Assembly: GCA_003213165.1 (NCBI GenBank)
Contig: QCNO01000001.1
Coordinates: forward strand, 133,403-197,402
From: OCS155 cluster bacterium AG-426-D23
Lineage (GTDB): Bacteria; Actinomycetota; Acidimicrobiia; Actinomarinales; Actinomarinaceae
DNA: 64,000 bases
Direction of reading: 5' to 3'
Part shown: positions 21,999 to 63,923 of the stretch, piece by piece
Layout: the number at the start of each line of letters is the position of its first letter
Position numbering within the stretch: position 1 is the stretch's first letter
Position numbers and translations under genes: made by a program
The notes under the pieces: generated by a model
The model's input: only the letters and a program-made list of their open reading frames with translations
Database searches by the model: none
What the model was told of the DNA's origin: nothing

Positions 21999-22609
21999 TA
22001 AATAAATGCAAAAACTCCTTTATCACAACTAACATTCAATTCATCTTTGGTAGCAATATTTCTTAAAGTTGTAGTTTCTCCAAATTGAATGTTTTTATTT
22101 TCTAAATTCCACTTAGCACCATCTATTGAAAGATTTGATAAATTTGTAATTGGAATAATGCTAAATTTGCTCATTTTTTTTACATTTAATTTAAGTTTTT
22201 GTCGAAAGATTATTCTCTTATCTCCATAAAGCCAAATGATATTTTCAAAAAAGGATATTGATGGTATCAATAAAAAAATTGAAATTAAATGATCAATCTC
22301 TCCTGATTCTCCACCAATAATATAAATTATTGATTTGTCTACTCCTTCAAGATAATTCAATGCAAGTTCAAAGTCAGTTTGGTCTTTATTGCTATTAAAA
22401 GCCATAATATCAACATCATTTTTTTTAATTTTATTTAATGATTTCTCTGATATTGAATCTAAATCTCCTATTAAGGTACTTGGATCTAGTGAAAGTCTGA
22501 ATAAATGTTCTACTCCTGAATCAACAGCAATTATCTCCTCAAAGTTTTTCTCAATACTTAATACATTGCTTGTAGAATTTCCACCAATTGAAATAAGATA
22601 ATTTTTCAT
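21995..22609 (-). CDS. thiamine diphosphokinase
   Basis: 204 aa. The GDLDSI motif and overall layout are typical of TPK. Its 3' end overlaps the acyl-CoA dehydrogenase gene by 4 nt (convergent). Confidence 0.65.
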   Translation of the reverse strand: MKNYLISIGGNSTSNVLSIEKNFEEIIAVDSGVEHLFRLSLDPSTLIGDLDSISEKSLNKIKKNDVDIMAFNSNKDQTDFELALNYLEGVDKSIIYIIGGESGEIDHLISIFLLIPSISFFENIIWLYGDKRIIFRQKLKLNVKKMSKFSIIPITNLSNLSIDGAKWNLENKNIQFGETTTLRNIATKDELNVSCDKGVFAFIY

Positions 22610-22669
22610 ATTTCTAAGTTTAATGTTAAAAAATTTCTCACATATCTCAAATCTTGTATCATTAATTCT

Positions 22670-23296
22670 ATGAGTAACGAATTTACATTTAAGATTGGTG
22701 ATGAAGCAGTAAAAACAATTATAGAGTTAAGAGATCAAGAACCTGGGGATAAGCAGTATGCATTATTTCTGCAAATTGACGGTGTTCATGGAAATCAATT
22801 TACCTATGACTTAAGTTTCTTAGACATTGAACAAACTAGATCAGATGATAAGAGAATAGATTTTGGAGATTTAGCTGTTGTAATTGCTTCAAAAGATATT
22901 GATAAATTCGATGGTGCAAGTTTAGATATGTCAGACGATGACCAAGCACCAGGGCTTACAATGGATAATCCAAATACACCAAGCCCTGCGATGATCGGAA
23001 ATCCAGCAGATTTGCCAGAATTAAAGGGTGAACTAGCTGAAAAAGTTCAAGCAGTTTTAGAAAATCAAATCAATCCAGCAATTGCATCGCACGGAGGTGC
23101 TGCTCAGTTAATTGGTGTTGAGGGAAATGACATTTACTTAAGGCTTGGTGGTGGTTGCCAAGGATGTGGTATGGCACAAGTCACACTCACTCAAGGTATT
23201 GAGGCATCTTTACGAGAAGCTGTTCCTGAAATAGGAAACATTATAGACGCTACCGATCACGCAGCTGGTGAGAATCCATATTTTGCTTCTCACTAA
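22670..23296 (+). CDS. NfuA-like Fe-S cluster biogenesis protein (C-terminal Nfu domain)
   Basis: The C-terminal GGGCQGCGMAQVTL is the Nfu CxxC motif. The N-terminal domain of about 90 aa is joined by an acidic linker, as in NfuA. Confidence 0.65.
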   Translation: MSNEFTFKIGDEAVKTIIELRDQEPGDKQYALFLQIDGVHGNQFTYDLSFLDIEQTRSDDKRIDFGDLAVVIASKDIDKFDGASLDMSDDDQAPGLTMDNPNTPSPAMIGNPADLPELKGELAEKVQAVLENQINPAIASHGGAAQLIGVEGNDIYLRLGGGCQGCGMAQVTLTQGIEASLREAVPEIGNIIDATDHAAGENPYFASH

Positions 23297-24264
23297 ACGC
23301 TAATAACAGTTTTACCTATATTTTTCCTATTTAAAAAATTTTCTAAAGCTATTGAAGTATCTTCAATTTTGTAATTATTTTTTGGAACAATTTTTAATTT
23401 TCCACTTTCAACAAAAGAAACTAATTCACTAAAATCTTCTGCTGTTTCATGAGGGGAAGTATTAGTCCATCGACCCCACCAAACGCCAACAATTGATACC
23501 CCCTTTACAAGTGTTAGGTTTAGTGAAATTTTAGGTATCTCCCCATTAGCAAAGCCAATTACTAATAGTCTGCCATTGAATGCTGTAGCTCTTAATGCTT
23601 GTTCAGAAACTTCACCACCAACAGGATCAATAACTATATCTACACCTTTCCCATCAGTGAGTTCTTTAACCGTTTCTTTTAAGTCAACTTGATCATATCT
23701 TACTATTTCATCTCCACCTAAACTTTTTACATATTCTGCTTTGTCATCAGAACCGACTGCACAAATTGTTTTCAGTCCCATAACTTTTGCTAATTGAATA
23801 GTTGCAGTGCCAATCCCACCAGAGGCACCAAGGACTAAAAGACTTTCTCCACTTTGAGCATTTGCTCTCCTTTTTAGAGCATAATATGAAGTACCGTAAT
23901 TAATTGGTAAGCTTGCCCCAGCCAAAGAATCAAAGTTCATATTTACTGGAATTACCAAATTTTTATTTATTGTAACGAATTCAGCAAACCCTCCAATTGG
24001 AGGAATGCCAATTACTTTTGTTCCCACAGGAATATCAACATTTTCACCTTTCTCTTCAATAATTCCACAAACTTCATTACCTGGAATAAATGGTGGATCT
24101 ATTACAATTTGATACTTTCCTTGAACAAGAAGTGCATCTGGAAAATTAACTCCAGCGACTTCAACTTTTATTAAGACTTCATCTTTATTAATCGTTGGCT
24201 TATCAATTTCATTTATTTCTAGTAATTTCGGCTCACCTAGTTTTGTACATACAACTGCTTTCAT
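23293..24264 (-). CDS. zinc-independent MDR-family quinone oxidoreductase (NADPH:quinone reductase-like)
   Basis: MKAVVC...GEPKLLE...VLIKVEAAGVNFPD and the GASGGIGT Rossmann motif. It is 4 nt coupled to the upstream abfD-like gene. Confidence 0.8.
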   Translation of the reverse strand: MKAVVCTKLGEPKLLEINEIDKPTINKDEVLIKVEVAGVNFPDALLVQGKYQIVIDPPFIPGNEVCGIIEEKGENVDIPVGTKVIGIPPIGGFAEFVTINKNLVIPVNMNFDSLAGASLPINYGTSYYALKRRANAQSGESLLVLGASGGIGTATIQLAKVMGLKTICAVGSDDKAEYVKSLGGDEIVRYDQVDLKETVKELTDGKGVDIVIDPVGGEVSEQALRATAFNGRLLVIGFANGEIPKISLNLTLVKGVSIVGVWWGRWTNTSPHETAEDFSELVSFVESGKLKIVPKNNYKIEDTSIALENFLNRKNIGKTVISV

Positions 24265-25721
24265 TGTTCTCTCTCTATAATTCCCGATAATTTTTTGGCA
24301 AAGTCTTTTTTTTCTTCAATATTTACTTTCCTTCTAATCTGGACTCTCTGTGCTTGTGGGGAGCCTGCACCATGTAAAGATTCAGTTAAATAAGCAACGG
24401 CATTTCTACCTAATGTCATATTTTCAATCAACCTTAAAATTTTTACTCGATCTTCTGAGTTAATATCTTTTTTACCTTTTAAATATTTTTTTAAATCCTC
24501 AGACATCGTTCCTTCATTAAAATCAATTCCTGAAGGCATAGATCCGACTAGGCCACCTGCAAGATCTTGTGCAATTCTTCCAATCTCATACGTTTCTTTT
24601 GTCACATGCTGTTTACATACATTTGCCAATAGATCATCATTAATAAAGTTTCCTGACTTAGTGCTCGAACCTTGAAGTGATGAAGCGATACCAGTTGCAT
24701 ATATTGTTTCATTGAGTTTATTCATTTCAACAAGCTTATCTTTAATATGCGATACCTCTTCTACACCGTTGTACTCCGCAATTGTAGCTGCAGCTCCAAT
24801 AAGTACATCACCAACTCCTGATTTACAAACATAAGATCTTCTATGATATGTTGTAAATCTCTCAACTAACATAGATGCAAAATCATATTCACCGTTCATA
24901 AAAATGTATTCATTTGGTATAAATACATTATCAAAAATCACCATTGCCTCTTGCCCGGCAAAATATTTATTTCCAACATCATATTCACCAGGCTCCATAC
25001 TCCTTGTATCGCATGACTGTCTACCATAGATATAAGTTATTCCTTCTGCATCTACTGGGATTGCACCAACTATTGCATAGTCTTTATCTTTTTCAGTCAA
25101 TCTCAAGGTAGGCATTACAACCATCCAGTGTGAATTTATACATCCAGTCTGATGGGCTTTTGCTCCCTTAACGTAAACACCATCATTTGTCCTTTTTACA
25201 ATTCTTAAGTACACATCTTCATCTTCTTGTTCGTGTGGTAGTTTTGATCTATCACCCTTAACGTCTGTCATTGCACCACCAATCACTAAATTGTATTTAT
25301 GCATTTCAGTTAGAAAATTAATAAAATTCTTGTGATATTCGGTATTGTGATTTTCATCAATTTCAAAAGTTACAGAATGAAGTGCATTGAATGCATCCAT
25401 GCCTACACATCTTTGAAAGCAGGTACCAGTTAGTTGTCCAAGCTTTCTTTGCATTTTATTTTGCAAAAATAAATCTTCATTACTTTCTGCGATATGCAAA
25501 AATCTATTTATTTTTTTGCCAGTATAGGGTGATATTGCTGATGCTAATTCTGGTTCTCTGACTGCTAGCTCATATGTTTCAGCCATTGCTTCAATACTCG
25601 GCCTTATTATTGGATGTTCTATGGGTTCTTTTACAAGTTCCCCCATCAAATAAATTTTTAAGTTTCTATTTCTGATTGAATCTAAATAGCTATCTTTATT
25701 AGTTATTTTATTCATATGCAA
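24261..25721 (-). CDS. abfD: 4-hydroxybutyryl-CoA dehydratase / vinylacetyl-CoA isomerase-like (HpaB superfamily)
   Basis: 486 aa. It contains Cys101-x3-Cys105 (TGTCFQRCVG) and His293/Cys299 (TYHRRSYVCK). These sit at positions that I recall as the [4Fe-4S] ligands of Clostridium AbfD (C99, C103, H292, C299). A generic HpaB-type flavin monooxygenase would lack them. Confidence 0.7.
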   Translation of the reverse strand: MHMNKITNKDSYLDSIRNRNLKIYLMGELVKEPIEHPIIRPSIEAMAETYELAVREPELASAISPYTGKKINRFLHIAESNEDLFLQNKMQRKLGQLTGTCFQRCVGMDAFNALHSVTFEIDENHNTEYHKNFINFLTEMHKYNLVIGGAMTDVKGDRSKLPHEQEDEDVYLRIVKRTNDGVYVKGAKAHQTGCINSHWMVVMPTLRLTEKDKDYAIVGAIPVDAEGITYIYGRQSCDTRSMEPGEYDVGNKYFAGQEAMVIFDNVFIPNEYIFMNGEYDFASMLVERFTTYHRRSYVCKSGVGDVLIGAAATIAEYNGVEEVSHIKDKLVEMNKLNETIYATGIASSLQGSSTKSGNFINDDLLANVCKQHVTKETYEIGRIAQDLAGGLVGSMPSGIDFNEGTMSEDLKKYLKGKKDINSEDRVKILRLIENMTLGRNAVAYLTESLHGAGSPQAQRVQIRRKVNIEEKKDFAKKLSGIIEREQ

Positions 25722-25797
25722 TTATAGTTTTTTAATTCATTGCAAGTCACATATAGATGTTGTTATTTATTTTTTATTATCGATGAAGGAATGAATA

Positions 25798-26259
25798 CTA
25801 ATCAGACAAATACGTTTCGTTATATTTAGATTGAACATCTTCTGGCCAAATAGAGTACATATATTCAATGACTGACCAGATTTCTTCATCACTTAATTTA
25901 TCATTTGCATTCATCTTACCTTCATAGTTTGGGTCAAAATAAACCAAACCATATCTAATTGTGTTGAAAATCTGTTCTGGTGAGTGATGCCAACTATGAC
26001 CATAACCATTTAAAGGAGGTGCTAACCTGTGGCCATCTTCATCTCTGTTAGTTTTCCAATTATCAGCACCTTTTAACTCAGCTTTATGACACTTTATACA
26101 ATTCGCTTCATATACTTTGATACCCAATGAAATAACTTCTTCTAGTTCTTTGTTTTTATTTGCAGGAAATCTTACATCTGTGTAGTTAACACAATTTGAA
26201 ATAAAGGTTGTTAAGAGAAGTAGATTTATAAAAACAATTAATTTATTATTTTTTTTCAT
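25798..26259 (-). CDS. c-type cytochrome with N-terminal signal/anchor
   Basis: N-terminal hydrophobic segment MKKNNKLIVFINLLLLTTFISNC, then a single CIKCH heme motif. Confidence 0.6.
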   Translation of the reverse strand: MKKNNKLIVFINLLLLTTFISNCVNYTDVRFPANKNKELEEVISLGIKVYEANCIKCHKAELKGADNWKTNRDEDGHRLAPPLNGYGHSWHHSPEQIFNTIRYGLVYFDPNYEGKMNANDKLSDEEIWSVIEYMYSIWPEDVQSKYNETYLSD

Positions 26260-26314
26260 ACAAAATTAAAATTTTAACATGTCTGGAAGCGTGTTTTAGA
26301 TGATGATTAATTCC

Positions 26315-27493
26315 TCAAATTACTTCAAATAATCCAGCAGCACCCATTCCACCACCAACACACATTGTGACGACAACATATTTTGCACCTCTTCGTTTAC
26401 CTTCCATAAGAGCATGCATTGTCATTCTTGCGCCAGTCATTCCATATGGATGTCCTATAGATATTGAGCCACCATTAACATTGTAAATTTCATTATCAAT
26501 ACCTAGATAGTCTCTACAATATAAAGCTTGCACTGCGAATGCTTCATTAAGCTCCCATAAGCCGATGTCATCAATACTTAAGTTATATTTATCAAGCAAT
26601 TTAGGAACAGCATATATTGGCCCAATTCCCATTTCTTCTGGAGCTAAACCTGCAACAGCCATTCCTCTGTAATAGCCAAGTGGTGTTAGGCCTTTGTTTT
26701 CTGCAACCTTAGATTCCATAACCACTACGGATGCGGATCCATCAGATAACTGAGATGCATTTCCAGCAGTTATGAACTTACCCTCTCCATACACTGGGAC
26801 TAACGATGATAGACCTTCTATATTTGTTTCTGGTCTGTTACCTTCGTCTTTTTCTAAAGTAGCTTCTTGTTCAGAAATTTCCCCGGATTCTTTGTCTTTA
26901 ACTAACTTAGTAGTCGTAGTTGAAATGATTTCGTCTTTGTAAAGATCTGCTTCTTGTGCAGCAGCTGTTCTTTGCTGACTTTGTAAGGAATACTCATCTT
27001 GACTTTCTCTTGTTACATTATATTTTTCAGCAACATGATCAGCAGTTTCAATCATTGGCATGTATGCATGTTTTGCGTGCTCAGTAACATTAGGATCAAT
27101 ATCTACCCTAAAATCTGCAGTTTGCACGAGTGAAATAGATTCAACTCCTCCAGCTACAACAACGTCCATATTGTCTGTAACAACCTGTTTTGATGCGGTC
27201 GCAATTGCCATCATTCCCGATGAACATTGCCTGTCTATTGTCATGCCTGGAACATTATCTGGAAGCCCTGCTGCAATACCAGCTAATCTTCCTATATTTA
27301 TAGCTTGTGAACCTTGTTGCTGTGCACATCCTAAAACAACATCTTCAACTTCTTTTGGATCTATTCCAGCTCTATCAACAGCTTCTTTTATAGAGTAAGA
27401 GGCTAGGGTTGGGGCAGCTGTATTATTAAAAGCCCCTCTGTAAGCCTTACCAATAGGCGTTCTAGCTGCTGATACTATTACTGCTTCTCTCAA
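26315..27493 (-). CDS. acetyl-CoA C-acyltransferase (thiolase)
   Basis: Thiolase signatures: active-site Cys in [19 protein letters not shown] and C-terminal CVGGGMG. It carries an insertion of about 55 aa, mainly acidic, roughly at residues 170-225. Confidence 0.85.
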
Positions 27494-27509
27494 TTTTTTC
27501 CTCCTAAAT

Positions 27510-27971
27510 CTATTCGTTTACAACGTATAAAGTTAAAGCCTCTACAATTGCAGCAGGCTTTTCTTTACCTTCAATTTCAATTGTTACAGTAAATTTAACT
27601 AACCATCTACCGTTTTTCTTATAGTTGACTTCTGATAAAACAAACCGTCCTCTAATTTTACTATTAACTGGAACAGCTTCCATAAATCTAACTTTGTCAG
27701 CACCATAATTAATAGCCATTTGCATCCCATCAGGCATAAAACCATTTTGGGCTGACATGTAAGACAGAAGGCTTAAAGTCAAAAAACCATGTGCGATTGT
27801 AGAACCCCACGGAGTTGCTTTAGCCATTTCGGGATCTACATGTATAAATTGATGATCATTTGTCGCGTCAGCAAATTGGTTAATTCGTTCTTGGGTAATT
27901 TCTAGCCATTCAGTAACACCAGTTTCTTGACCAACATAATTTTCAAATTCTTTAGCCGGAATAACTTTCAA
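27510..27971 (-). CDS. MaoC-like (R)-specific enoyl-CoA hydratase / hot-dog fold dehydratase
   Basis: 153 aa. [24 protein letters not shown] is the MaoC dehydratase motif. Confidence 0.8.
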
Positions 27972-28990
27972 AATATCTCCTTAAGTAGATTCTTATTAGA
28001 CGCTTTTTTTGCAAAACTTAATGTGCTTTTACCAAATGCCTCTACATCTTTCTTATCAACATTACCATAATAACCAAGAGAATACCTTACGTAGACTCCT
28101 TCCATTATCATTGCATGTTTCCAAAAAGATAGTCTCACATAGAATTCAACATTTTTTAAATCGAGGTCTGATTTAGAGTCATATAGATTAATTATTTCTT
28201 GCCTACTTGGGAATCCATCACTTAAGGAGGGTGAATATATAAAAGGAGTATCAGTTTCATTCTTATTTGACCAAGAAGCAATCACAGTTCCTAGATCAGC
28301 TAATGGATCACCTAATGTACAGAGTTCCCAATCAACAATCGCTGCAACTAAGTTATTATTTACCCTTACATTATCTAATCTATAATCTCCATGAACAATA
28401 CTTACTTTTTGTTGCGTGGGGATTGTATCGAATAATAATTTTGTAGCAATATCTAAATCGGTAATATCTCTTACTTTCTGTGAATTAAATTGTTTTGTCC
28501 ATCTGTTTAACTGCCTTAAGACATAGTCTTCATGTTTTCCTAAATCATTTAATTTTGAATTTTTTACATCGAAAGTATGCAATTCAGAAAGTGTTGTAAT
28601 AAATGAATTCGTAATTTCTTTTTTATCATTTTTCGAATAATTTTCAGCTACTACATTATCTGCAATAGTTTCCCCTTCAATATATTCCATAATGTAAAAA
28701 TCATCATCAGAGACTGTTCTATCGGTACATAAAAAAATTGGTTTTGGAACTTTTAAATTATTTTCACTAAGTTCACTAATAATTCTGTATTCACGTTGCA
28801 TGTTATGTGCAGACTCTAATTTATCTCCAAATGGAGGTCTTCTTAGAACATAACTATTCCTATTATCAAAAATTTTAAAAGTAATGTTTGATCTACCAAC
28901 TTTAAATTTTTCAAATTTAAATTGGTTATCCAAATCAAGATTGGAAGCTATGTAGTTTCTTATTTTTTCATTAAAAAATTCCATTAACAA
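27968..28990 (-). CDS. phosphotransferase (APH/choline-kinase-like) family protein associated with acyl-CoA dehydrogenases
   Basis: Brenner motif HGDYRLDN and DWELCTLGDPLADLG. It overlaps the downstream MaoC gene by 4 nt and is divergent from an acyl-CoA dehydrogenase. Confidence 0.7.
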   Translation of the reverse strand: MLMEFFNEKIRNYIASNLDLDNQFKFEKFKVGRSNITFKIFDNRNSYVLRRPPFGDKLESAHNMQREYRIISELSENNLKVPKPIFLCTDRTVSDDDFYIMEYIEGETIADNVVAENYSKNDKKEITNSFITTLSELHTFDVKNSKLNDLGKHEDYVLRQLNRWTKQFNSQKVRDITDLDIATKLLFDTIPTQQKVSIVHGDYRLDNVRVNNNLVAAIVDWELCTLGDPLADLGTVIASWSNKNETDTPFIYSPSLSDGFPSRQEIINLYDSKSDLDLKNVEFYVRLSFWKHAMIMEGVYVRYSLGYYGNVDKKDVEAFGKSTLSFAKKASNKNLLKEIF

Positions 28991-40568: not shown

Positions 40569-41651
40569 ATGAATAACAAATTAGCAGTCATTTATGGAGG
40601 TCCTTCTCCAGAACACGACATTTCGATATTGACTGGCTTACAAGCTGCAAAAATATTGTCTTCAAAATATGAAGTTACGAACATCTATTGGTCTCGTGAC
40701 AATAGATGGTTTTTAGTTGATAATGATCTTGAATCTAAAGATTTTATTGAAAATAAAGATATTTTTAAGAAAGAGATAACAATAAAGTACGATTCAAATC
40801 CTGGTTTTTACATTAAAAAGAAAAAAATTGAAATAGATTTAATCGTAAACTCCTGTCATGGTGGTCCAGGTGAAGACGGAACATTACAGAGTTTATTTGC
40901 CTTATTAGAAATAGATTTTACTGGTCCGTCGTTGACCACATCTCAATTATGTATGGACAAGTACGCATTTTTTTCGTTAATGAATAGTAATAACATGCCA
41001 GTTTTAGAAAAACATTTAGTATCAGAAAAAGTTTTTCCAGAATTTGAGGGACCATATATTCTTAAACCTAGATTTGGAGGGTCCTCAATTGGAGTAGAAG
41101 TAGTAGACGATTATAAAACCGCAATAACCATTTCTTCAAATTCAGATTTATATATCCAGGGTGCAACCATTGAAAAATATCTTGAAGAATCATCCGATTT
41201 GTTAGTAGCTGTAAGATCATTTCCTCAAATTGATTATTCAGAAATTGAGAAGCCAATTAGATCAAACAATTTTGAATTGTTTTCATATACTGACAAATAT
41301 CTTGAAAATGGTGGATTAGAAGGATCTAAAAGAGAATTGCCTGCAAATATATCGAAAGATATTAAAGATGACATTTATCGAATTTTAGATTTATTTATGT
41401 CAATTGTCGATATAAGAGGAATAGCAAGGGTAGATTTTCTATTGAAAGATAAAGAACTATATATAAATGAAGTTAATACAATACCAGGAAGCCATGCACT
41501 TTACTTATGGGAGTCAAAAGGGTTTAGCAAATTTGAGTTAATGAATGATATGATTTCTGAGGCCAAAAATTCTCTGTCATCTTGGTCCACAGAAGGATCT
41601 GATGGGACTGCTTTAAAATCAGCAAAAGATATTAAAAGTAAGTTAGGTTAA
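40569..41651 (+). CDS. ddl: D-alanine--D-alanine ligase
   Basis: N-terminus KLAVIYGGPSPEHDISILTGLQAAKIL, C-terminal ATP-grasp block ARVDFLLKDKELYINEVNTIPG. 360 aa. Confidence 0.8.
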   Translation: MNNKLAVIYGGPSPEHDISILTGLQAAKILSSKYEVTNIYWSRDNRWFLVDNDLESKDFIENKDIFKKEITIKYDSNPGFYIKKKKIEIDLIVNSCHGGPGEDGTLQSLFALLEIDFTGPSLTTSQLCMDKYAFFSLMNSNNMPVLEKHLVSEKVFPEFEGPYILKPRFGGSSIGVEVVDDYKTAITISSNSDLYIQGATIEKYLEESSDLLVAVRSFPQIDYSEIEKPIRSNNFELFSYTDKYLENGGLEGSKRELPANISKDIKDDIYRILDLFMSIVDIRGIARVDFLLKDKELYINEVNTIPGSHALYLWESKGFSKFELMNDMISEAKNSLSSWSTEGSDGTALKSAKDIKSKLG

Positions 41652-42286
41652 TGTACGGAATACTTTGGGACTGTGATGGAACAATCATGGATACCGAGAG
41701 ACTCTATGCCTACGCATGGCAGACCCACTTAAAACAATTCGGATTAAGTATTCCTGAAGACGAGATAAAGCAATTTGTTGGAGTTGATGACAGGATAGTG
41801 CATTCGTTTTATTCGGATCAGGTAGATTTAGAAAATTTCGATCAAACGATGCATAAATTAGGCTTTATAATTGAAAATTCCTTAGATGAAAGAATAATAT
41901 TTCAAGATGCAAAACAATTACTTTATCAATTATCACATCTTGAATTTAAGCAGGCTTGTGCATCTGCAAGCCCATATAATTTGTTAAGTAAAAAACTACA
42001 AAAGTTCAAAGTTGATTCTTATTTTGATTTTATTATTGGAGGAGATCAGGTTAATAGAAACAAACCATATCCAGATATTTACAATAAGGCGATAGAAAAA
42101 TTGGGAACTTCTTATAATTTAGTTATCGAAGACAGTCCGACTGGAATTTTATCCGGCAAAGCATCGGGATCTTTTGTTTTAGCTATAGACAGAGGTATGT
42201 TTTCTAAAGAACAACTGAGTGAAGCTGATCAAATAGTTGAAATGTTAGATATAGAAATCATAAATAAGATTTTTAAAAGTCTATAA
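41651..42286 (+). CDS. HAD-superfamily hydrolase (beta-phosphoglucomutase-like subfamily IA)
   Basis: Motif I is DCDGTIMDTE. It has a C-terminal GDQ..D motif and a cap domain, and is 211 aa. TAATG overlap with ddl. Confidence 0.7.
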   Translation: MYGILWDCDGTIMDTERLYAYAWQTHLKQFGLSIPEDEIKQFVGVDDRIVHSFYSDQVDLENFDQTMHKLGFIIENSLDERIIFQDAKQLLYQLSHLEFKQACASASPYNLLSKKLQKFKVDSYFDFIIGGDQVNRNKPYPDIYNKAIEKLGTSYNLVIEDSPTGILSGKASGSFVLAIDRGMFSKEQLSEADQIVEMLDIEIINKIFKSL

Positions 42287-42319
42287 ACAGGGGATATTTT
42301 TAAAATAAATTACAAAACT

Positions 42320-42346
42320 TTCTTAGGCACAAAATGTGACTAAGAA
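42320..42346. terminator. possible bidirectional hairpin terminator between convergent genes
   Basis: TTCTTAGGCAC-aaaat-GTGACTAAGAA is an 11-bp stem with one mismatch, in the 53-nt spacer between the HAD gene and the DDN gene. AT-rich, so weak. Confidence 0.3.
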
Positions 42347-42762
42347 ATGTTAAGAACTAATACAGGAATTTTTCTTTCCGTTCTTCTTTGATAAGCAGAG
42401 TACCCACCATTATTTATATAATCCATTTTGTTCCACCACTCATTTCTTTCATCTTCATATATTTCTCTTGATACTGCTTTAAATTTATCTCTTCCGATTT
42501 GAACTTCACACTCAGGATATTTTTTTAGATTGTGATACCAGCCTGGATTAGTATCACTCCCACCTTTTGAGGCTACAATACATATTTCATTATCCTCTTT
42601 GAGGAAAACCAAAACATTTTTTCTTTCCAGATTTGTTTTTGCCCCAGTTGTATGAAGTATTAAACAAGGGCGGTTATTTAAAAATTTACCGATTCTTCCG
42701 TCTGAGTAAATATAAATATAGTTATGAAAGAAAAGAAATAAAAATAGTAAATATCTTTTCAT
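42340..42762 (-). CDS. deazaflavin-dependent (F420) nitroreductase-family protein (DDN / DUF385)
   Basis: The start was chosen at MKRYLLF, which gives an ATGA overlap. ILHTTGAKTNLERKNVLVF..DNEICIVASKGGSDTNPGWYHNL..YPECEVQIGRDK..YQRRTERKIPVLVL matches the DDN family consensus. Confidence 0.75.
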   Translation of the reverse strand: MKRYLLFLFLFFHNYIYIYSDGRIGKFLNNRPCLILHTTGAKTNLERKNVLVFLKEDNEICIVASKGGSDTNPGWYHNLKKYPECEVQIGRDKFKAVSREIYEDERNEWWNKMDYINNGGYSAYQRRTERKIPVLVLNIS

Positions 42763-43958
42763 ATATTCAATTCTATTCTTTTTTTCCAAGAACTATAACT
42801 CGATGGATAAAAGTTAATTGGCTTTACTAATCTAACAGAGGGGAATTCTGTAGTTGGAATATTTACACGAGTTATTTTTTTGTATTTTGGGACTGCTGCA
42901 AATGTGCTTGCAAAATTTTTATTTTTAAGATATTCAATTGGATTATCTAAGTACACCTGAGTACTTCTTTTGTTAGCTAATTCCCTTAAACAATCTAATA
43001 AAAATATAATTCTTTTAGTTGAAAGTTGTAAATAATTTAATAAAGGTTTATCAAAAATAAAAACAGCTGGAAGATTTGAATAATAATTCAATGCTGGATC
43101 ATTGTCTCCTATTGACTCAGCATTCATCCAAACAAATTCAGGTTTTGAATCAATATTATCTTTTATATTTTTAGGTCCAAAATTAGTTTCAATATCCAAA
43201 TCAACATCTATTGTTTTTTTAGTTATGTTGATTTCTTCAGGCCAATTTTGTATAGGACAATCATATTTGACTTCACAATTGTCACAAAAACTTTTTGCTC
43301 TTTTGTCTACTTGGAATTTTGAAAAACCATACACTTTACCAGTTTGAGACCCCATAACCCAATGCCAACCTAATCTATTTGCAAATCTTGATCCATCAAC
43401 TAAATGTTTAAACATGTAATCTTCATAATTTCTCCAGTTATCTCCAGTTCGTAATGAAAAATGTGATGCAAACCACATTCTTGTTTGATTAACCATGTAT
43501 CCAGTACTTTCAAGTTCGTTTTTAATTGAATTAATACAATTCATATTTTGATAGTCTTTTTCGATCTTTTTATTTGATTTGATTACATAATTTAAATAAT
43601 CGTTTGTATTTTTACCTACAATTGCGTACAAATGCCTCGAAAACTCTTGCCATAACAGCTCATCTCTGAATTTTGTTTTATCTTGGTATTCAAATTTTTC
43701 TACAAAATTCCATACTTCGGGTAACGAAATTAAACCATGTCGTATATAAGCAGATAAATAAGACGAACCTCTTTTTTCAATTGGCAGTACATTATTCCTT
43801 GTTTTTGCATAATTATTAATATCTAGTGTATTTAAGGCATTATCTGCATTTGATTGGCCACCCTTTATTAATGGTTCTGTATATTTATCGCAACATAAAT
43901 CATTAAAGTATTTGTTAATAATTTCTTCGTTGGATAAGTCTAAATTTATTGAGGACAT
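42759..43958 (-). CDS. photolyase/cryptochrome-superfamily protein with inverted domain order (NewPHL-like), possible Fe-S cluster
   Basis: N-terminal half: the FAD-domain signature NQTRMWFASHF...DYMFKHLVDGSRFANRLGWHWVMG. Middle: Cys cluster FCDNCEVKYDC. C-terminal about 130 aa: DNDPALNYYSNLPAVFIFD..KRIIFLLDCLRELA resembles the alpha/beta antenna domain that is normally N-terminal. Confidence 0.55.
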   Translation of the reverse strand: MSSINLDLSNEEIINKYFNDLCCDKYTEPLIKGGQSNADNALNTLDINNYAKTRNNVLPIEKRGSSYLSAYIRHGLISLPEVWNFVEKFEYQDKTKFRDELLWQEFSRHLYAIVGKNTNDYLNYVIKSNKKIEKDYQNMNCINSIKNELESTGYMVNQTRMWFASHFSLRTGDNWRNYEDYMFKHLVDGSRFANRLGWHWVMGSQTGKVYGFSKFQVDKRAKSFCDNCEVKYDCPIQNWPEEINITKKTIDVDLDIETNFGPKNIKDNIDSKPEFVWMNAESIGDNDPALNYYSNLPAVFIFDKPLLNYLQLSTKRIIFLLDCLRELANKRSTQVYLDNPIEYLKNKNFASTFAAVPKYKKITRVNIPTTEFPSVRLVKPINFYPSSYSSWKKRIELNI

Positions 43959-43966
43959 TAAGTTAT

Positions 43967-44182
43967 TTAGTACTTATCTTGTCCAATTCGGATATTTTTG
44001 ACAACATTTACATCATCTTGTGCTTCAATCTCGAAATTAATTCTCTGACCCTGTCTTAATGTTCTAAAAATAGAACCTTTAAGTGAACCTGGAACAATAA
44101 AAACTTCTGATTTGTCTGTGTCTAATAAAATAATCCCGTTTCCGGTATTTGGGTCATACGATTTAACAACACCTTGTGCCAT
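43967..44182 (-). CDS. small protein with degenerate cold-shock-domain-like (OB-fold) pattern
   Basis: 71 aa. It follows a CSD-like layout (GVVKSYDP..GNGIILLD..EVFIVPGSL..GQRINFEIEA) but lacks the aromatic RNP residues. TAATG overlap with rpmB. Confidence 0.4.
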   Translation of the reverse strand: MAQGVVKSYDPNTGNGIILLDTDKSEVFIVPGSLKGSIFRTLRQGQRINFEIEAQDDVNVVKNIRIGQDKY

Positions 44183-44418
44183 TAAACTTTTTCGCCTCTT
44201 TGTCTAATTTCCTTAACAACTGACTCTATTCCGCGTTTATCAATTATTTTGTTTCCTCTTGTACTAACTTTTAGCTTTACCCATCTATTTTCACTTGCAA
44301 GCCAATATTTTTTTGTTTGGATATTTGGTTTAAACCATCGGGGATTTCGTTTATGAGAAAAAGTGACGTTTTTCCCAGAACGTGGTTCTCTTCCTGTAAC
44401 TTGACATCTATTTGCCAT
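44182..44418 (-). CDS. rpmB: 50S ribosomal protein L28
   Basis: The start at MANRCQVTGREPRSGKNVTFSHKRNPRWFKPN is preceded by GGAGG 8 nt upstream. The ORF tool's upstream extension was discarded. Confidence 0.85.
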   Translation of the reverse strand: MANRCQVTGREPRSGKNVTFSHKRNPRWFKPNIQTKKYWLASENRWVKLKVSTRGNKIIDKRGIESVVKEIRQRGEKV

Positions 44419-44502
44419 AAAATTTCCTCCAAAATACAATTCTAACTATAACTAATTTATTAATTTGTAGGTACTTTCATTTTAAAACTTTTTAGGTAAT
44501 GT

Positions 44503-46629
44503 TTGATTGTGGTTGAAAGAAGCTTTAAATATTTAGATGAAATAGAACTTAGTTTTGTTCGAGGAATAGGCGAAAAAAAGTTTGCAAGTCTAAAAAAAAG
44601 TAAATTAAAAACTGTTGCTGATTTAATTCGCTATTTTCCAAGAACACATATTGACAGATCAAAGGTTAAGTTAATATCTCAAATTGATAAAAATGATGAA
44701 AATAATGAAGTAACTATCTTTGGAACTATTGACAAAGTTTCCGTTTTTACCACAAAGACAAGATTAAGAATTGCAACACTAAGTATTTCTGATGAATCAG
44801 GAAATTTAAAAGCTAAATGGTTTGGTCCTCAATATATAGAGTCTAGATTTAAAGAAGGTGAAGTAGTTGCTATATCAGGAAAACCTGAAGTTAAAAAAAC
44901 TGGAAGTGTTGATTTTAAAAATCCAGCTATTGAAAAATTTACTGATATTGAAGAATTAAACGAAACGGGTTCTTTTATTCCTATTTACAAAAAAGTAGAG
45001 GGTATGACAAGTGCAAGCATTAGAAAAGGGTTAAAGGAAATAATCGCTATATTAGAGTCAACAAAAGATGATTTCACACCCGGATTATTTGATGTTTTAC
45101 CTTCTGAAATCATTAAAGAACATTCCCTTGAAAATAGATTACAAAGTATAAAAAAGATTCATTTTCCAAAAAACGAAGTTGATTATAAAAATGCAAGACG
45201 GAGATTAGTCTTAGATGAGTTTATTTATTTAAGGTCAATATTTGAAAATCTAAAGTCAAAATATAAGCATGAAAATAAAGGATTGGTTTACACATTTTCT
45301 AATTCAGATATAGATGAATTTATAGACCAACTCCCTTTTCAATTAACTCAATCGCAATTTAAGGCTGTAAATGAAATTTTAGAAGATTTTAGAAAAAATT
45401 ATCCTATGAAAAGACTGCTGCAAGGCGATGTTGGTTCAGGAAAAACAGTCGTAGCTACTATTGCGTCTTATGCTGCAATTAAATCAGGCTATCAGGTTGC
45501 ATTAATGGCTCCAACAGAGGTTTTAGCTGAGCAACACTTTGCTTCAATTAATCAATTTATGAATAAAGATCAATGTGACATATATCTACTTACTTCATCA
45601 ATTAAAGATAGAGAAAATATTTTAGAAAACCTAAATAATGGTAAACCAGCCCTTTATATTGGTACTCACGCACTAATTCAAGAAAGTATTAAATTTTCAA
45701 ATCTTGGATTTGCAATTATTGATGAACAACAGAGATTTGGTGTTGAGCAAAGAAAAAAGCTAATAAATGAATCTGGAGATATTCCTGATCAGCTAGTTAT
45801 GACTGCTACACCAATTCCAAGAACTACAGCATTGTCAATTTATGGAGATTTAGAAATTTCTTCGATTAATGAATTACCACCTGGGAGAAAAGACATTACT
45901 TCCCATCTGATAGAAGGATCAAAAAAAGATAACGAAACCATTTATGATATTTGTGAGTTTCATCTTCAGAAAAAATCACAAATATTTGTAGTCTGTCCAT
46001 TTATCGAAGAAAGTGAATTGGTGGATATTCAAGCTGCTGAAAATGTTTTCATTGAGTATAAAGAAAAGTTTAAAGATTACAATGTTTCAATTCTTCATGG
46101 GAAGATGTCCTTTGATGAAAAAGATCAAATAATGCAAGATATGAAGAATGGTATAGTAGATATCCTGGTTTCCACAGTTGTTATTGAAGTTGGAATAGAC
46201 ATACCTAATGCAACATTAATGATTATTGAAAGTGCTGAAAGATTTGGATTAAACCAATTACACCAATTAAGAGGTAGGGTTGGGAGAAGTGACAAACAAT
46301 CAGAATGTATTTTTCATGTTTCCAAGAAGAAAACATTAAATACAATCAGTGAAGACGGAAAGAGAAGATTAGAAGCGATTGTAAATATAAAAGATGGCTT
46401 TAAATTGTCTGAAATTGATTTAGAGATTAGAGGTGAAGGTAAAGTTACAGGTACAAGCCAATCTGGACAATCTGATTTAAAGATAGCCGATTTGAGATAC
46501 GACTATGAACTGCTTTTAGAATCAAAAAATATATTTGATAAAATTGAATCTGAAGATATTAAAAAACTACTATTTGAGGAAGCACAAATTCTGTTTCCAA
46601 ATTATTTTAAAGCAAGTGGAACTACATGA
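44503..46629 (+). CDS. recG: ATP-dependent DNA helicase RecG
   Basis: TTG start. It has a wedge/OB N-terminus, helicase motifs GDVGSGKT, DEQQRFG and QLRGRVGR, and is 708 aa. It is divergent from rpmB, as is typical for Actinobacteria. Confidence 0.85.
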   Translation: MIVVERSFKYLDEIELSFVRGIGEKKFASLKKSKLKTVADLIRYFPRTHIDRSKVKLISQIDKNDENNEVTIFGTIDKVSVFTTKTRLRIATLSISDESGNLKAKWFGPQYIESRFKEGEVVAISGKPEVKKTGSVDFKNPAIEKFTDIEELNETGSFIPIYKKVEGMTSASIRKGLKEIIAILESTKDDFTPGLFDVLPSEIIKEHSLENRLQSIKKIHFPKNEVDYKNARRRLVLDEFIYLRSIFENLKSKYKHENKGLVYTFSNSDIDEFIDQLPFQLTQSQFKAVNEILEDFRKNYPMKRLLQGDVGSGKTVVATIASYAAIKSGYQVALMAPTEVLAEQHFASINQFMNKDQCDIYLLTSSIKDRENILENLNNGKPALYIGTHALIQESIKFSNLGFAIIDEQQRFGVEQRKKLINESGDIPDQLVMTATPIPRTTALSIYGDLEISSINELPPGRKDITSHLIEGSKKDNETIYDICEFHLQKKSQIFVVCPFIEESELVDIQAAENVFIEYKEKFKDYNVSILHGKMSFDEKDQIMQDMKNGIVDILVSTVVIEVGIDIPNATLMIIESAERFGLNQLHQLRGRVGRSDKQSECIFHVSKKKTLNTISEDGKRRLEAIVNIKDGFKLSEIDLEIRGEGKVTGTSQSGQSDLKIADLRYDYELLLESKNIFDKIESEDIKKLLFEEAQILFPNYFKASGTT

Positions 46630-61512: not shown

Positions 61513-61921
61513 ACACAAAAATACATTGAACTTCCACTGATGCATTCAGTGGTAAGCTGGCAACCCCAACAGCAGATCGTGTTGACTTTTTATCAAAATA
61601 CTCTGCAAGCTTATCTGTAAAACCATTCAATATTTTTGCATGATCTTGAAAACCATTATCAGCATTTACGAACCCTAATACATTTACTGGCTGTAGATTT
61701 TCAATTTCACCATTTGCTAAAAGTGTAGATATAGTTAATTCAGCACATAGTGAAGCAGCTTCATAACCATCTTCCATTGATACCTCAGAAGGTATCTTTC
61801 CTTGAAATTTTTTCTTATCAGTAAATGGAACGTGACCAGATGTATATATATAATTTCCAACTTTTTTATATGTTACATAATTTCCAATAGCCTTTGGTGC
61901 AACTGGTAATTCTTTATCCAT
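61505..61921 (-). CDS. RidA/YjgF family (reactive enamine/imine deaminase-like) protein
   Basis: 138 aa. APKAIGNY..SGHVP and the C-terminal VEVQCIF pattern of the YjgF/chorismate-mutase-like fold. Confidence 0.7.
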   Translation of the reverse strand: MDKELPVAPKAIGNYVTYKKVGNYIYTSGHVPFTDKKKFQGKIPSEVSMEDGYEAASLCAELTISTLLANGEIENLQPVNVLGFVNADNGFQDHAKILNGFTDKLAEYFDKKSTRSAVGVASLPLNASVEVQCIFVYE

Positions 61922-62918
61922 TGTTTAGTAAGTTTCCAATTAAATCTACAACTCTGTTTGAATATCCCCACTCATTGTCATACCAGCAAACTACTTTTAC
62001 ATGATTACCTTCTAGTAGCTGAGTTGAAGAAGCATCATATATACTTGAGTGCGGATTATTTAAAATATCTGTAGATACAAGAGGCACCTCAGAATACTCT
62101 AATATTCCGTTCAACTCATTGTCTGCAGCATTCTTAACTGCTTTGTTGATATCATCTATAGAGACTTTTTTTTCTAATTCAACGACGAGATCAACAACGC
62201 TCCCATCAGGAACAGGCACTCTCATTGCCATCCCATCTAGTTTTCCATTAAGTTCTGGAAGTACCATACCAACAGCTTTTGCTGCACCTGTTGATGTTGG
62301 GATAATATTCTGTGTTGCACTACGTCCTCTTCTAAAGTCACTATGGGTAGTTTCAGCTAATGCTTGGTCATTAGTATATGCATGTACTGTGGTCATTAAT
62401 CCGGATATAATTCCAAAATTATCATCTAAAACTTTTGCTATAGGTGCTAAACAGTTTGTAGTGCAAGATGCATTTGATACTATTTTATCCTCAGGCTTAA
62501 GATCACTATCATTTACCCCGAGGACAATTGTTGCATCTATATCATCTTTAGGAGGTACAGTTAGTAATACTTTTTTAGCTCCGGCATCAAGATGTTTATT
62601 TAATGATTCACTATCTCTGAATATTCCAGTAGATTCAACAACAACATCAACATTCATCTCTTTCCATGGAAGGTCCGCAGGGTCTTTAATTGAAGTCAAT
62701 TGAATTGACCTGTCATCTACAATTAATTTGTCCCCAGCAACGCTCACATTACTATCTAATATTCCCATTACTGAGTCATGTTTAAGCAAGTAAGCAAGAT
62801 TTTCGTAGTTTCCTAAATCATTTATTGCCACGACATTTATATCAGAATCATTTTCTACAATAATCCTGAGAATTGATCTTCCAATTCTTCCAAAACCATT
62901 TATAGCTACGTTACCCAT
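61914..62918 (-). CDS. gap: glyceraldehyde-3-phosphate dehydrogenase, type I
   Basis: NGFGRIGR, the active site SNASCTTNCLAP, TTVHAYT and WYDNEWGYS are all canonical. Confidence 0.9.
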   Translation of the reverse strand: MGNVAINGFGRIGRSILRIIVENDSDINVVAINDLGNYENLAYLLKHDSVMGILDSNVSVAGDKLIVDDRSIQLTSIKDPADLPWKEMNVDVVVESTGIFRDSESLNKHLDAGAKKVLLTVPPKDDIDATIVLGVNDSDLKPEDKIVSNASCTTNCLAPIAKVLDDNFGIISGLMTTVHAYTNDQALAETTHSDFRRGRSATQNIIPTSTGAAKAVGMVLPELNGKLDGMAMRVPVPDGSVVDLVVELEKKVSIDDINKAVKNAADNELNGILEYSEVPLVSTDILNNPHSSIYDASSTQLLEGNHVKVVCWYDNEWGYSNRVVDLIGNLLNNG

Positions 62919-63923
62919 TTAAAGCTCTTGTCCTAATCGTTTAATGGTGTCTATTATTCTTGAAGCGTAACCCCAACCGTTATCAAACCAAATTATTAAT
63001 TTTATTTTCTTATTATTAATACCCATTGTAGCAAGACCATCTATCAGGCCAGAAAGTGTGCTTCCGACTACATCAGATGAAACGATTGGGTCGTATGTAA
63101 TTCCGATTATGTTTTTTAACTCATTTTCTGAATAATTTTTAAGGAGATTGTTTATTTCTTCAATAGTCGTTTCTTTTGTAATATCTATTGTTAGGTCTAC
63201 TGTACTTCCATCAGGAATCGGAACTGTCATTGATGAGGATGCTATTTTATTTTTTAAAAAGGGAAGTACATTTACAATTACTTCGGATGATTTAGTAATA
63301 CTAGGTATTATATTTTCTCCAGCAGCCCTATTTAGTCTAAAACCTTCACCAGCTACATCAGCTAATCTGTTTGAGTTTGAATATCCATGTACAGTTGTTA
63401 AAAAAGCTCTTTCGACGCCTACATCTTTATTTAAAGCCTTTAGTATCGGTGCAACAGCATTTGCAGTATTCGATCCAAGTGAAAACACATCAGAATTAAA
63501 GTCAGTGTATTCATCGTTTGCACCAGGTACATAAATTTGAATATCTTTAAAGTTTTCTGGTGTAGAAGCAATTATTACTTTTTTACACCCTTTTGATAAA
63601 TGTATATCAACTTCTTCTTTTGTTTTTGGTTTACCAGTTGCAAGTATTACAACATCTGTTGCAATTGCTTCCCAATCTGCTTCATTTCCACCCTTCCAAG
63701 AGTTAAATATGATTTCTTTATTATCTACAACAATACCTTTTTCAGTCTCATGGATATCAGCATTTAATTTTCCGTATATTGAATCATATTTGAGCAAATA
63801 AATTAAGTTTTTTTTATCTGCGGTATCAGATATTGAGACTATGTTAATTTCTTTGTCTCCCAATGTTTGTCTAAATAGATCTCTACCTATTCTTCCAAAA
63901 CCAACAAGTGATACGTTTGTCAT
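62919..63923 (-). CDS. GAPDH-family paralog lacking the catalytic cysteine (Cys to Asn)
   Basis: It has the full-length GAPDH layout: GFGRIGR, TTVHGYS and WFDNGWGYASR. The active-site stretch reads SLGSNTANAVAP against SNASCTTNCLAP. The DNA at 63468-63470 is att (reverse complement aat), coding Asn. It abuts the canonical gap gene with no spacer. Confidence 0.75.
   Translation of the reverse strand: MTNVSLVGFGRIGRDLFRQTLGDKEINIVSISDTADKKNLIYLLKYDSIYGKLNADIHETEKGIVVDNKEIIFNSWKGGNEADWEAIATDVVILATGKPKTKEEVDIHLSKGCKKVIIASTPENFKDIQIYVPGANDEYTDFNSDVFSLGSNTANAVAPILKALNKDVGVERAFLTTVHGYSNSNRLADVAGEGFRLNRAAGENIIPSITKSSEVIVNVLPFLKNKIASSSMTVPIPDGSTVDLTIDITKETTIEEINNLLKNYSENELKNIIGITYDPIVSSDVVGSTLSGLIDGLATMGINNKKIKLIIWFDNGWGYASRIIDTIKRLGQEL

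Follow-up and report, generated by a model that had tools for sequence, protein, structure and literature searches.

The locus described here raises the question of whether a photolyase gene lying among genes for a ribosomal protein, a cold-shock-domain (CSD) protein and a DDN-type deazaflavin-dependent reductase is functionally tied to its neighbours, or whether these genes are simply packed together. It lies in a window of 64,000 nucleotides, the whole stretch of DNA analysed, from OCS155 cluster bacterium AG-426-D23; the closest loci were found in assemblies of Ca. Actinomarina and Actinomarinales, and the source organism is Ca. Actinomarina. Four ORFs, namely rpmB, a CSD-like gene, the photolyase gene and the DDN gene, follow one another on the minus strand (Table 1). 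The reading favoured for the whole, with a probability of roughly 0.75, is that of a lineage-specific, tightly packed gene string in which a photolyase of the known NewPHL/SPL class and an independent DDN stand side by side without forming a module.

Table 1. Features of the four-gene string and its flanks (positions in the window).
Feature	Position	Strand	Evidence
HAD-family hydrolase gene, convergent, downstream bound of the cluster	41651..42286	+	Pfam HAD_2 on homologues
FDOR-A/DDN-type F420H2-dependent reductase, 140 aa	42340..42762	-	PF04075, TIGR00026, Ddn structures
ATGA overlap, photolyase stop/DDN start	42759..42762	-	ORF coordinates
NewPHL/SPL-class photolyase, 399 aa (stop codon included)	42759..43958	-	HMMs, alignments, AF2 model, Foldseek
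C-terminal Rossmann-like alpha/beta 'Z' domain, aa 262-399	42762..43175	-	AF2 domain model, Foldseek, profiles
N-terminal all-alpha FAD-binding/catalytic domain, ~aa 1-240	43239..43958	-	class I alignments, Foldseek
Cys cluster C225-x2-C228-x5-C234, putative [4Fe-4S] ligands with C141	43257..43286	-	alignments A1, A2
Cys141 codon, first of four invariant Cys	43536..43538	-	alignment of 66 sequences
Degenerate CSD protein, 71 aa	43967..44182	-	PF00313; PDB 5o6f alignment
rpmB, ribosomal protein L28	44182..44418	-	PF00830, TIGR00009 matches; Shine-Dalgarno position
Divergent intergenic region rpmB(-)/recG(+), 84 nt	44419..44502	.	presumed promoter region
recG, divergent, upstream bound of the cluster	44503..46629	+	RecG_wedge, DEAD, Helicase_C domains on homologues

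The original prediction of four packed same-strand genes was reproduced in both its ORFs and its junctions (-1, +8 and -4 nt). The CSD-like gene and the rpmB stop codon have one base in common (TAATG), an 8-nt gap (43966-43959) separates this gene from the photolyase gene, and the photolyase stop and DDN start overlap at 42759-42762 in an ATGA, as had been claimed. The identities then assigned to rpmB, to a degenerate CSD-like protein and to a member of the DDN family held as well. The rpmB product scored 77.7 bits with PF00830 and 72.6 bits with TIGR00009 (cutoff 48.3), and represents the 78-aa form of L28 with one Cys and no Zn ribbon. Its start is most likely ATG 44418, given the GGAGGA found 7 nt upstream. 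Longer TTG starts for rpmB (44439) and DDN (42789) were rejected, as ATG 44418 and ATG 42762 agree better with the position of the Shine-Dalgarno sequence and with the point where alignments to relatives begin, for DDN at Met 42762.

The CSD-like protein scored 29.3 bits with PF00313 (cutoff 27), and its best PDB match was the closest solved Csp, 5o6f (E 1.2e-6). It has the length, the OB-fold register and the N-terminus (MAQG-VK) of the actinobacterial CspA-type Csp, but differs in that the aromatic and basic residues of RNP1 and RNP2 have been swapped out: KGFGFI is replaced by TGNGII and VFVHY by VFIVP, with W8, F15, F17, H29 and Y30 of 5o6f corresponding to S8, N15, I17, V29 and P30. Neither of these nucleic-acid-binding motifs was thus found in the alignment to 5o6f and, because these residues are replaced, canonical binding of ssRNA or ssDNA is doubtful; by its sequence the protein is a degenerate Csp paralogue derived from actinobacterial CspA. 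In Actinomarinales the gene stays beside rpmB whether the photolyase is there or not. With DDN, scores of 124.1 bits (PF04075, cutoff 22) and 92.8 bits (TIGR00026, cutoff 46.35) were obtained, and aa 17-137 aligned with the solved Ddn-type structures 7kl8 (E 2.4e-23), 3r5z (6.4e-21) and 3r5r (3.4e-20). Judging from this family membership, DDN would be an independent F420H2-dependent reductase, with quinones as its most likely substrates, as for FDOR-A1/Ddn. No F420-related genes were found among the 10 other window ORFs scanned, which were housekeeping only. Homologue searches with the CSD-like protein and with DDN each returned close relatives only, apparently Actinomarinales, and provide no outgroup context.

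The tight junctions of the string are the norm for this genome and not special, because 31 of the 44 same-strand neighbour pairs in the window overlap or lie no more than 10 nt apart (median -1 nt); the listed ORFs cover ~97% of the window. Co-transcription of a photolyase gene with rpmB had been considered unusual: the adjacency is real, but its unusualness loses force because almost every junction in the genome is an overlap. A promoter/terminator scan of the string detected no terminator-like site on its minus strand, where the genes leave no room for one, and it returned fewer promoter-like sites than were seen in shuffles; on internal promoters it is uninformative. One promoter-like match on the plus strand, at 44412-44440, overlaps the rpmB/recG intergenic region, and no Rfam leader or riboswitch family was matched in 41500-45000. 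As the sole non-coding stretch upstream of the string, 44419-44502 is probably the single region from which all four genes are read. Co-transcription from rpmB is plausible on this layout, with internal promoters inside coding sequence also possible, and such shared reading would reflect genome compaction, not a common pathway.

The photolyase is, by its sequence features, a member of the already published NewPHL class (Emmerich 2020, NAR; DsNewPHL and MmNewPHL), which is the same as the SPL class (Xu 2021, MBE; RfSPL) (PMC7736829, PMC8476157), and is of the four-Cys type. [quoted passage not shown] Photolyase HMMs and PDB sequences cover aa 32-227 only, at model positions ~205-420, with no canonical N-terminal alpha/beta domain; the Cys cluster (C225-C234) follows, and the class residues are present. 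The matches of Foldseek to solved photolyases and cryptochromes span only the ~220-250 columns of the helical domain, and the full-length AF2 model (pLDDT 93.9, pTM 0.92) supports a folded alpha/beta domain at the C-terminus, and with it the inverted order.

With the residue register set by alignments to 1dnp and 1tez, E100, W103, N157, R160, M161 and W175 correspond to E274, W277, N341, R344, M345 and W359 of the E. coli enzyme, and D188, A193, N194, G197, W198 and W200 to D372, A377, N378, G381, W382 and W384. The CPD- and FAD-binding residues are invariant or nearly so among 66 sequences of 41-83% identity. Two members of the triad, W175 and W198 (E. coli W359 and W382), are invariant, while the alignment of homologues holds no conserved Trp between W103 and W162 and hence no counterpart of E. 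coli W306. C141, C225, C228 and C234 are invariant in the 66 sequences, and some family members gave weak matches to EndIII_4Fe-2S and WhiB. The Cys are arranged in a similar way to those of FeS-BCP and RfSPL (PMC8476157), and the cluster together with C141 is regarded as a putative set of [4Fe-4S] ligands. By sequence and analogy, the N-terminal helical domain most likely holds FADH- and uses blue/UV-A light to split CPDs, preferentially in ssDNA; the four Cys would coordinate a [4Fe-4S] cluster in the manner of RfSPL and FeS-BCP, and the C-terminal domain would lie against the FAD site as a shield.

The C-terminal 'Z' domain adopts a beta-alpha-beta-alpha-alpha-beta-alpha-beta-alpha-beta order in the model (residues 262-399), and was predicted with a pLDDT of 91.5 when modelled alone by AF2. 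Its top Foldseek PDB matches were to the class II photolyase of M. mazei (prob 0.82-0.97, TMq 0.46-0.57, E 0.02-0.16), positions 293-336 of the family profile align to residues 24-67 of the A. nidulans photolyase, and PF00875 was found in eight of the 66 family members. The tests of homology are each weak (Foldseek E 0.02; HMM 8.7 bits; hhalign to the FeS-BCP N-terminus E 0.022) but mutually consistent, and they hint that the Z domain corresponds to the alpha/beta domain normally found at the photolyase N-terminus, moved to a new place. The Z domain of NewPHL was reported to have a GFF motif and a single conserved Trp (Emmerich 2020); here, W277 and W391 are invariant and no GFF motif was recognisable in alignment A2, the NewPHL motif being known by description. 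The Z-domain evidence bears on the debate of whether NewPHL/SPL proteins are ancestral or a permuted derivative.

Comparison of gene neighbourhoods revealed how far the string extends. Photolyase and DDN genes are adjacent in 25 of 25 Actinomarinales loci, joined by an ATGA overlap or separated by 5-20 nt, and the full string with L28-CSD upstream was found in 23 of them. At 55 SPL loci of other Actinobacteria, tblastn (E<=1e-3) detected no CSD or L28 nearby and no DDN within 5 kb, and a DDN HMM applied to six-frame translations (E<=1) gave the same result for DDN; the SPL neighbours outside Actinomarinales are FeS-BCP photolyases, DUF2256-DUF3253 proteins and flavin amine-oxidase-like genes. 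An rpmB-CSD-DDN arrangement with identical flanks and no photolyase was found at loci L081-L083, L084 and L088, which derive from JGI metagenomes, an ENA assembly and an NCBI assembly (GCA_902534315.1). In the tree these loci group together as a single clade (100% bootstrap) whose sister is the photolyase-bearing group L019-L022 (87%), the bootstraps and the SPL tree being distance-based. Absence is at the level of the locus, and an SPL could sit elsewhere in these genomes because their contigs are fragments, the largest of 45 kb. The shared flanks carry unrelated housekeeping genes (murF-like, ddl, HAD, rsmD and coaD). The rpmB-CSD-DDN genes would constitute a conserved backbone, in which the photolyase gene, between CSD and DDN, is an indel. 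A single loss of the photolyase, in one clade, is the most likely history, although under an outgroup-rooted SPL tree a single gain may have occurred instead, the call depending on the root. The notion that the clade lacking the photolyase belongs to the dark ocean was dropped; GCA_902534315.1, which we take to be a GORG-Tropics surface-ocean single cell, would argue against it if so.

The original prediction had speculated that the photolyase and a deazaflavin-binding partner form a module. In such a module DDN would serve the photolyase by providing or holding FO/F420 as a trans antenna, or by using F420H2 for the re-reduction of FAD or the Fe-S cluster. The comparative sequence data give no support for a module: adjacency does not extend beyond one inherited gene order, and rpmB-CSD-DDN persists where the photolyase is missing, with the position of DDN and its coupling to CSD unchanged. 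The ATGA translational coupling and the adjacency in every Actinomarinales locus would fit a module, and adjacency down to 57% photolyase identity, often by ATGA, is also expected of a real functional pair; overlapping junctions, however, are the genome norm. To our knowledge, FDOR-A enzymes reduce small molecules and not protein-bound flavins, which was likewise counted against a module. Actinomarinales make F420, and hence FO, but so widespread is F420 in the phylum (PMC7771536) that the lack of DDN at the 55 other actinobacterial SPL loci tells against a partnership. In SPLs the photoreduction triad lacks its first Trp (PMC8476157), which makes an alternative reductant conceivable, and the best structural matches of the Z domain are to chains of the M. 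mazei class II photolyase, other entries of which carry 8-HDF (4cdn). Against this, the photolyase antenna is FO and not F420 (PMC8498797), and characterised NewPHLs bind no antenna (PMC7736829). Taken together, a module of this kind is very unlikely. The specific variant in which FO acts as antenna in the C-terminal domain of an Fe-S NewPHL and/or DDN with F420H2 keeps the photolyase flavin or Fe-S reduced is highly improbable; were it true, reduction by DDN would compensate for the missing first triad Trp, and this photolyase would be the first to have a deazaflavin-dependent redox partner dedicated to it.

A looser association, in which the genes form a light-stress operon and are co-expressed without physical contact, the SPL repairing ssDNA, DDN limiting quinone or photo-oxidative stress and the CSD protein handling nucleic acids, is unlikely too. 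It is favoured by the maintenance of the string across the order, by the divergently adjoining DNA-repair helicase gene recG and by the proposal that Ddn mitigates redox stress (PMC8498797), but rpmB, the first gene of the string, encodes a constitutive ribosomal protein, the CSD protein has lost the canonical nucleic-acid-binding aromatics, the photolyase is dispensable at the locus, in the NCBI assembly as elsewhere, and the housekeeping genes on the same flanks are unrelated. Nor is it at all probable that the photolyase homologue works as a sensor or regulator in the manner of a cryptochrome, or is vestigial, in place of being an active repair enzyme. RfSPL did show weak repair activity and little knockout phenotype, leading Xu et al. 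to raise a regulatory role (PMC8476157), and a second Actinomarinales photolyase adjoins a rhodopsin gene (PMC7771536). However, the near-invariance of the residues for CPD binding and FAD chemistry argues against this, as does CPD repair by both characterised NewPHLs and by RfSPL (PMC7736829, PMC8476157), and the retention of the gene in a ~97% coding, streamlined genome argues that the class is functional and not vestigial.

The packed string without a module, preferred here, places an Fe-S-type NewPHL/SPL photolyase in a very abundant, highly streamlined actinobacterium of the surface ocean. It also carries a caution: where ~97% of a genome is coding, neither overlapping start and stop codons nor a common strand is on its own a sign of shared function. 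That the photolyase is present in some copies of an otherwise frozen gene string and absent from others makes for a clean natural experiment on packing versus function.

The enzyme class is already known, and it is the gene order that is specific to the Actinomarinales. As with other NewPHL/SPL proteins, the photolyase has no N-terminal antenna domain and begins with the catalytic FAD domain, its C-terminal domain of ~140-150 aa would, by prediction, sit on the FAD site, the CPD-repair residues are kept and the triad is represented by its last two Trp only; the four Cys are kept as in SPL subgroups Ac and C, for which this type was reported (Xu 2021, PMC8476157). Relatives with 40-46% identity were found in Rhodococcus, Mycobacterium, Gordonia and Nanopelagicales, among them an orthologue from Rhodococcus sp. 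(L074; 42% identity over aa 14-393, E ~1e-108), RfSPL itself (Rhodococcus fascians) being WP_032397095.1. In contrast to these, the Actinomarinales photolyases, known here from sequence and model, form a very AT-rich branch on a long stem, and only they have rpmB-CSD upstream and DDN downstream. The FeS-BCP/CryPro bacterial (6-4) photolyases (A. fabrum PhrB, PDB 4dja) share the four-Cys [4Fe-4S] arrangement and the fold of the catalytic domain (Foldseek TMq 0.42), and their N-terminal alpha/beta domain aligns weakly with the Z domain; they differ in having the canonical domain order, a lumazine antenna and (6-4) photoproduct repair, whereas the active site of the present photolyase has residues of the CPD class I type. 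DDN, with its hydrophobic N-terminal segment, belongs with the Ddn/FDOR-A1 enzymes (M. tuberculosis Ddn, 3r5r; 7kl8; N. farcinica, 3r5z) in the PF04075/TIGR00026 split-beta-barrel family and aligns with them end to end (E ~1e-20 to 1e-23), but it differs in forming a distinct Actinomarinales clade, the 120 homologues among the matches listed all being at least 57% identical, and in always following rpmB-CSD, whether or not an SPL lies between.

The four minus-strand open reading frames, arranged head to tail in a region of ~30% GC, were each identified by family scans with scores above cut-off, and the proposed same-strand packing and junctions agree in every detail with the open reading frame coordinates (Table). 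The protein encoded by the second gene is degenerate, as had been suggested, with RNP1 reading TGNGII and RNP2 VFIVP; judged from its sequence, it clearly derives from an actinobacterial CspA (best PDB match, 5o6f). Of the window's 44 same-strand neighbor pairs, 31 are separated by at most 10 nt or overlap outright (median spacing, -1 nt), and the listed open reading frames cover about 97% of the DNA; hence, the TAATG and ATGA junctions represent the default of this genome. Elsewhere in the window, two tandem glyceraldehyde-3-phosphate dehydrogenase paralogs of 334 aa each follow one another with no intergenic base, one fitting the Pfam model far less well than the other (Gp_dh_C, 138.6 vs. 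228.6 bits), an unexpected redundancy for a streamlined genome. A promoter/terminator scan found no terminator-like site on the minus strand within the four-gene string, promoter-like matches were fewer than in shuffles, and no Rfam element was present. The four genes may plausibly be co-transcribed from the 84-nt region between rpmB and recG.

Table. Coordinates, junctions and family scores of the genes and loci discussed
Feature	Position	Strand	Start or junction	Family score (cut-off)
rpmB (L28)	44418-44182	minus	ATG 44418 most likely start, GGAGGA 7 nt before	PF00830 77.7 bits (27); TIGR00009 72.6 bits (48.3)
CSD-like, 71 aa	44182-43967	minus	ATG shares one base with rpmB stop (TAATG)	PF00313 29.3 bits (27)
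Photolyase, 399 aa	43958-42759	minus	8-nt spacer after CSD-like gene	PF03441, aa 140-224 only, 34.7 bits (27)
DDN, 140 aa	42762-42340	minus	ATG overlaps photolyase stop (ATGA)	PF04075 124 bits (22); TIGR00026 92.8 bits (46.35)
Four-gene string, window	42340-44418	minus		
Photolyase-less string, L081	3616-4459			
Photolyase-less string, L084	2569-3471			
Photolyase-less string, L088	2-904			
Glyceraldehyde-3-phosphate dehydrogenase paralogs	61914-62918; 62919-63923	minus		

The nearest genomic loci belong to Ca. Actinomarina/Actinomarinales SAGs and MAGs. The scan provided 80 loci, 25 from Actinomarinales (photolyase identity, 57-95%; one, L024, truncated) and 55 from other Actinobacteria, including Nanopelagicales, Ilumatobacteraceae, Solirubrobacterales, Mycobacterium, Rhodococcus, Gordonia, and Aeromicrobium. 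DDN lies directly downstream of the photolyase gene in all 25 Actinomarinales loci, and L28 and CSD directly upstream in 23. At L004 (single-cell assembly AH-558-F08), an inversion-type junction falls exactly within the spacer between the CSD and photolyase genes: positions ~4950-5003 join window ~28023 to ~43966, and a homolog of 21159-28023 replaces CSD-rpmB upstream of the photolyase. This breakpoint in the 8-nt spacer may reflect either a genuine inversion of ~16 kb or an artifact of assembly. Outside of Actinomarinales, neither DDN, CSD nor L28 was detected by tblastn within 5 kb of the photolyase at any of the 55 loci, nor was DDN detected there with its HMM on six-frame translations (E ≤ 1); the DDN query has adequate sensitivity for such a search, as it recovers the Ddn of M. 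tuberculosis with an E of about 1e-20. The neighbors there include FeS-BCP photolyases (PF04244; L027, L028, L036, and L075), DUF2256-DUF3253 fusion genes directly upstream in seven loci (L046 4585-4953, L061 4552-4983, and five more), and flavin amine-oxidase-like genes (eight loci within L040-L067). These recur across several actinobacterial lineages, and none occurs at the Actinomarina locus.

When DDN homologs at greater sequence distance were placed in their genomic context, five contigs proved to lack the photolyase (L081-L083, JGI metagenomes; L084, ENA metagenome assembly; L088, NCBI assembly GCA_902534315.1) but to have identical synteny: divergent recG, rpmB-CSD-DDN, and convergent HAD-ddl-murF. 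The 1.2-kb photolyase gene is missing, and DDN, called from a TTG start, shares 20 nt with the called CSD gene; a control DDN (P0333) had the four-gene form. A neighbor-joining tree built on concatenated DDN, CSD, HAD, Ddl, and RecG grouped the loci lacking the photolyase into one clade (100% bootstrap), with photolyase-bearing L019-L022 as its sister group (87%); under midpoint rooting, this topology implies one loss. An outgroup-rooted photolyase tree, in which the Actinomarinales enzymes are monophyletic, is broadly congruent with this; a single insertion would be the less probable alternative. Either way, rpmB-CSD-DDN is the stable backbone, the CSD-like gene going with rpmB and not with the photolyase, which is an indel within it under loss or gain. 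The DDN N-terminus differs by locus type (window 42763-42789/42759-42830): its ATG lies inside the 3' end of the photolyase gene where that gene is present, and otherwise a TTG inside the 3' end of CSD adds 8-16 residues, the KRYL...HNY(I/L/V)YIYS segment being kept in the window and L084. The L28 gene also has two forms among Actinomarinales. That of L081 (3616-3804) encodes 62 aa with a CxxC...CxxC Zn ribbon, read directly, and that of the window (44182-44418) 78 aa without one; those of L006 and L018-L022 (~4587-4742), only 42-45% identical to the latter, presumably belong to the short type. The pattern suggests that lineages have swapped one L28 paralog type for the other in place.

The original prediction had speculated that the photolyase and DDN form a functional module. 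DDN gives end-to-end alignments with FDOR-A structures of the Ddn type (7kl8, 3r5z, and 3r5r; E 1e-23 to 1e-20), and F420 synthesis with several F420-dependent oxidoreductases has been reported for Actinomarinales (PMC7771536). FDOR-A1 proteins reduce menaquinone with F420H2 and show promiscuous activities, and photolyases use FO, not F420 itself (PMC8498797). Despite the invariable adjacency within Actinomarinales, functional coupling is not supported, given the absence of DDN at the 55 other loci and the existence of rpmB-CSD-DDN without a photolyase; at this locus DDN is not dependent on the photolyase, nor are photolyases elsewhere dependent on a DDN neighbor. A deazaflavin link specific to Actinomarinales, through an FO antenna in the C-terminal domain or DDN-mediated re-reduction, is considered very improbable. 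Most likely, the photolyase is a member of a known enzyme class, present as an indel within a gene string that is lineage-specific and driven by compaction, and DDN an independent Ddn-like F420H2-dependent reductase.

The inverted domain order proposed for the photolyase was confirmed by HMM positions, AlphaFold2, and Foldseek, which place the catalytic domain at the N-terminus. Whole-photolyase NCBIfam models match residues 32-227 with their positions ~205-420. A homolog search returned 2,469 relatives, and an AlphaFold2 model of the full-length protein built from a 66-sequence alignment (41-83% identity) shows two confident domains (pLDDT 93.9, pTM 0.92). Foldseek matched ~220-250 columns of this model, the helical FAD domain only, to class I, II, III, and (6-4) photolyases and cryptochromes (query-normalized TM-scores about 0.4). 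No solved structure in the PDB has this domain order, and canonical photolyases are the only sequence relatives solved.

The C-terminal domain (aa 262-399), modeled alone (pLDDT 91.5), adopts a Rossmann-like beta-alpha-beta-alpha-alpha-beta-alpha-beta-alpha-beta fold. Among PDB entries, Foldseek ranked class II photolyase chains from M. mazei highest (E 0.02-0.16, prob 0.82-0.97, TMq 0.46-0.57 across ~138 columns). A second match aligned family-profile positions 293-336 with residues 24-67 of the A. nidulans photolyase, and positions 300-334 aligned with residues ~36-70 of Cryptochrome-1 chains. PF00875 ranked second in frequency among the Pfam matches of the family, hitting 8 of 66 members with a best E of 0.024, and hhalign placed domain residues 15-69 on residues 40-96 of the neighboring FeS-BCP photolyases (E 0.022). 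Four independent tests, each weak, thus point to kinship with the canonical N-terminal alpha/beta domain.

With the register checked on 1dnp and 1tez alignments, the catalytic residues of class I CPD photolyases were all found among the invariant or nearly invariant positions of the 66 sequences: E100, W103, N157, R160, M161, W175, D188, A193, N194, G197, W198, and W200 correspond to E274, W277, N341, R344, M345, W359, D372, A377, N378, G381, W382, and W384 of the E. coli enzyme. C141, C225, C228, and C234 are also invariant. The architecture is exactly that of the already known NewPHL class, as originally assigned, which Xu et al. independently named SPL (PMC8476157). Four Cys residues occur in about a third of SPL members (subgroups Ac and C), and both FAD and an Fe-S cluster were demonstrated in RfSPL of Rhodococcus (PMC8476157); the Actinomarina enzyme is most likely an Fe-S NewPHL/SPL of the four-Cys type, with predicted CPD repair activity on ssDNA.
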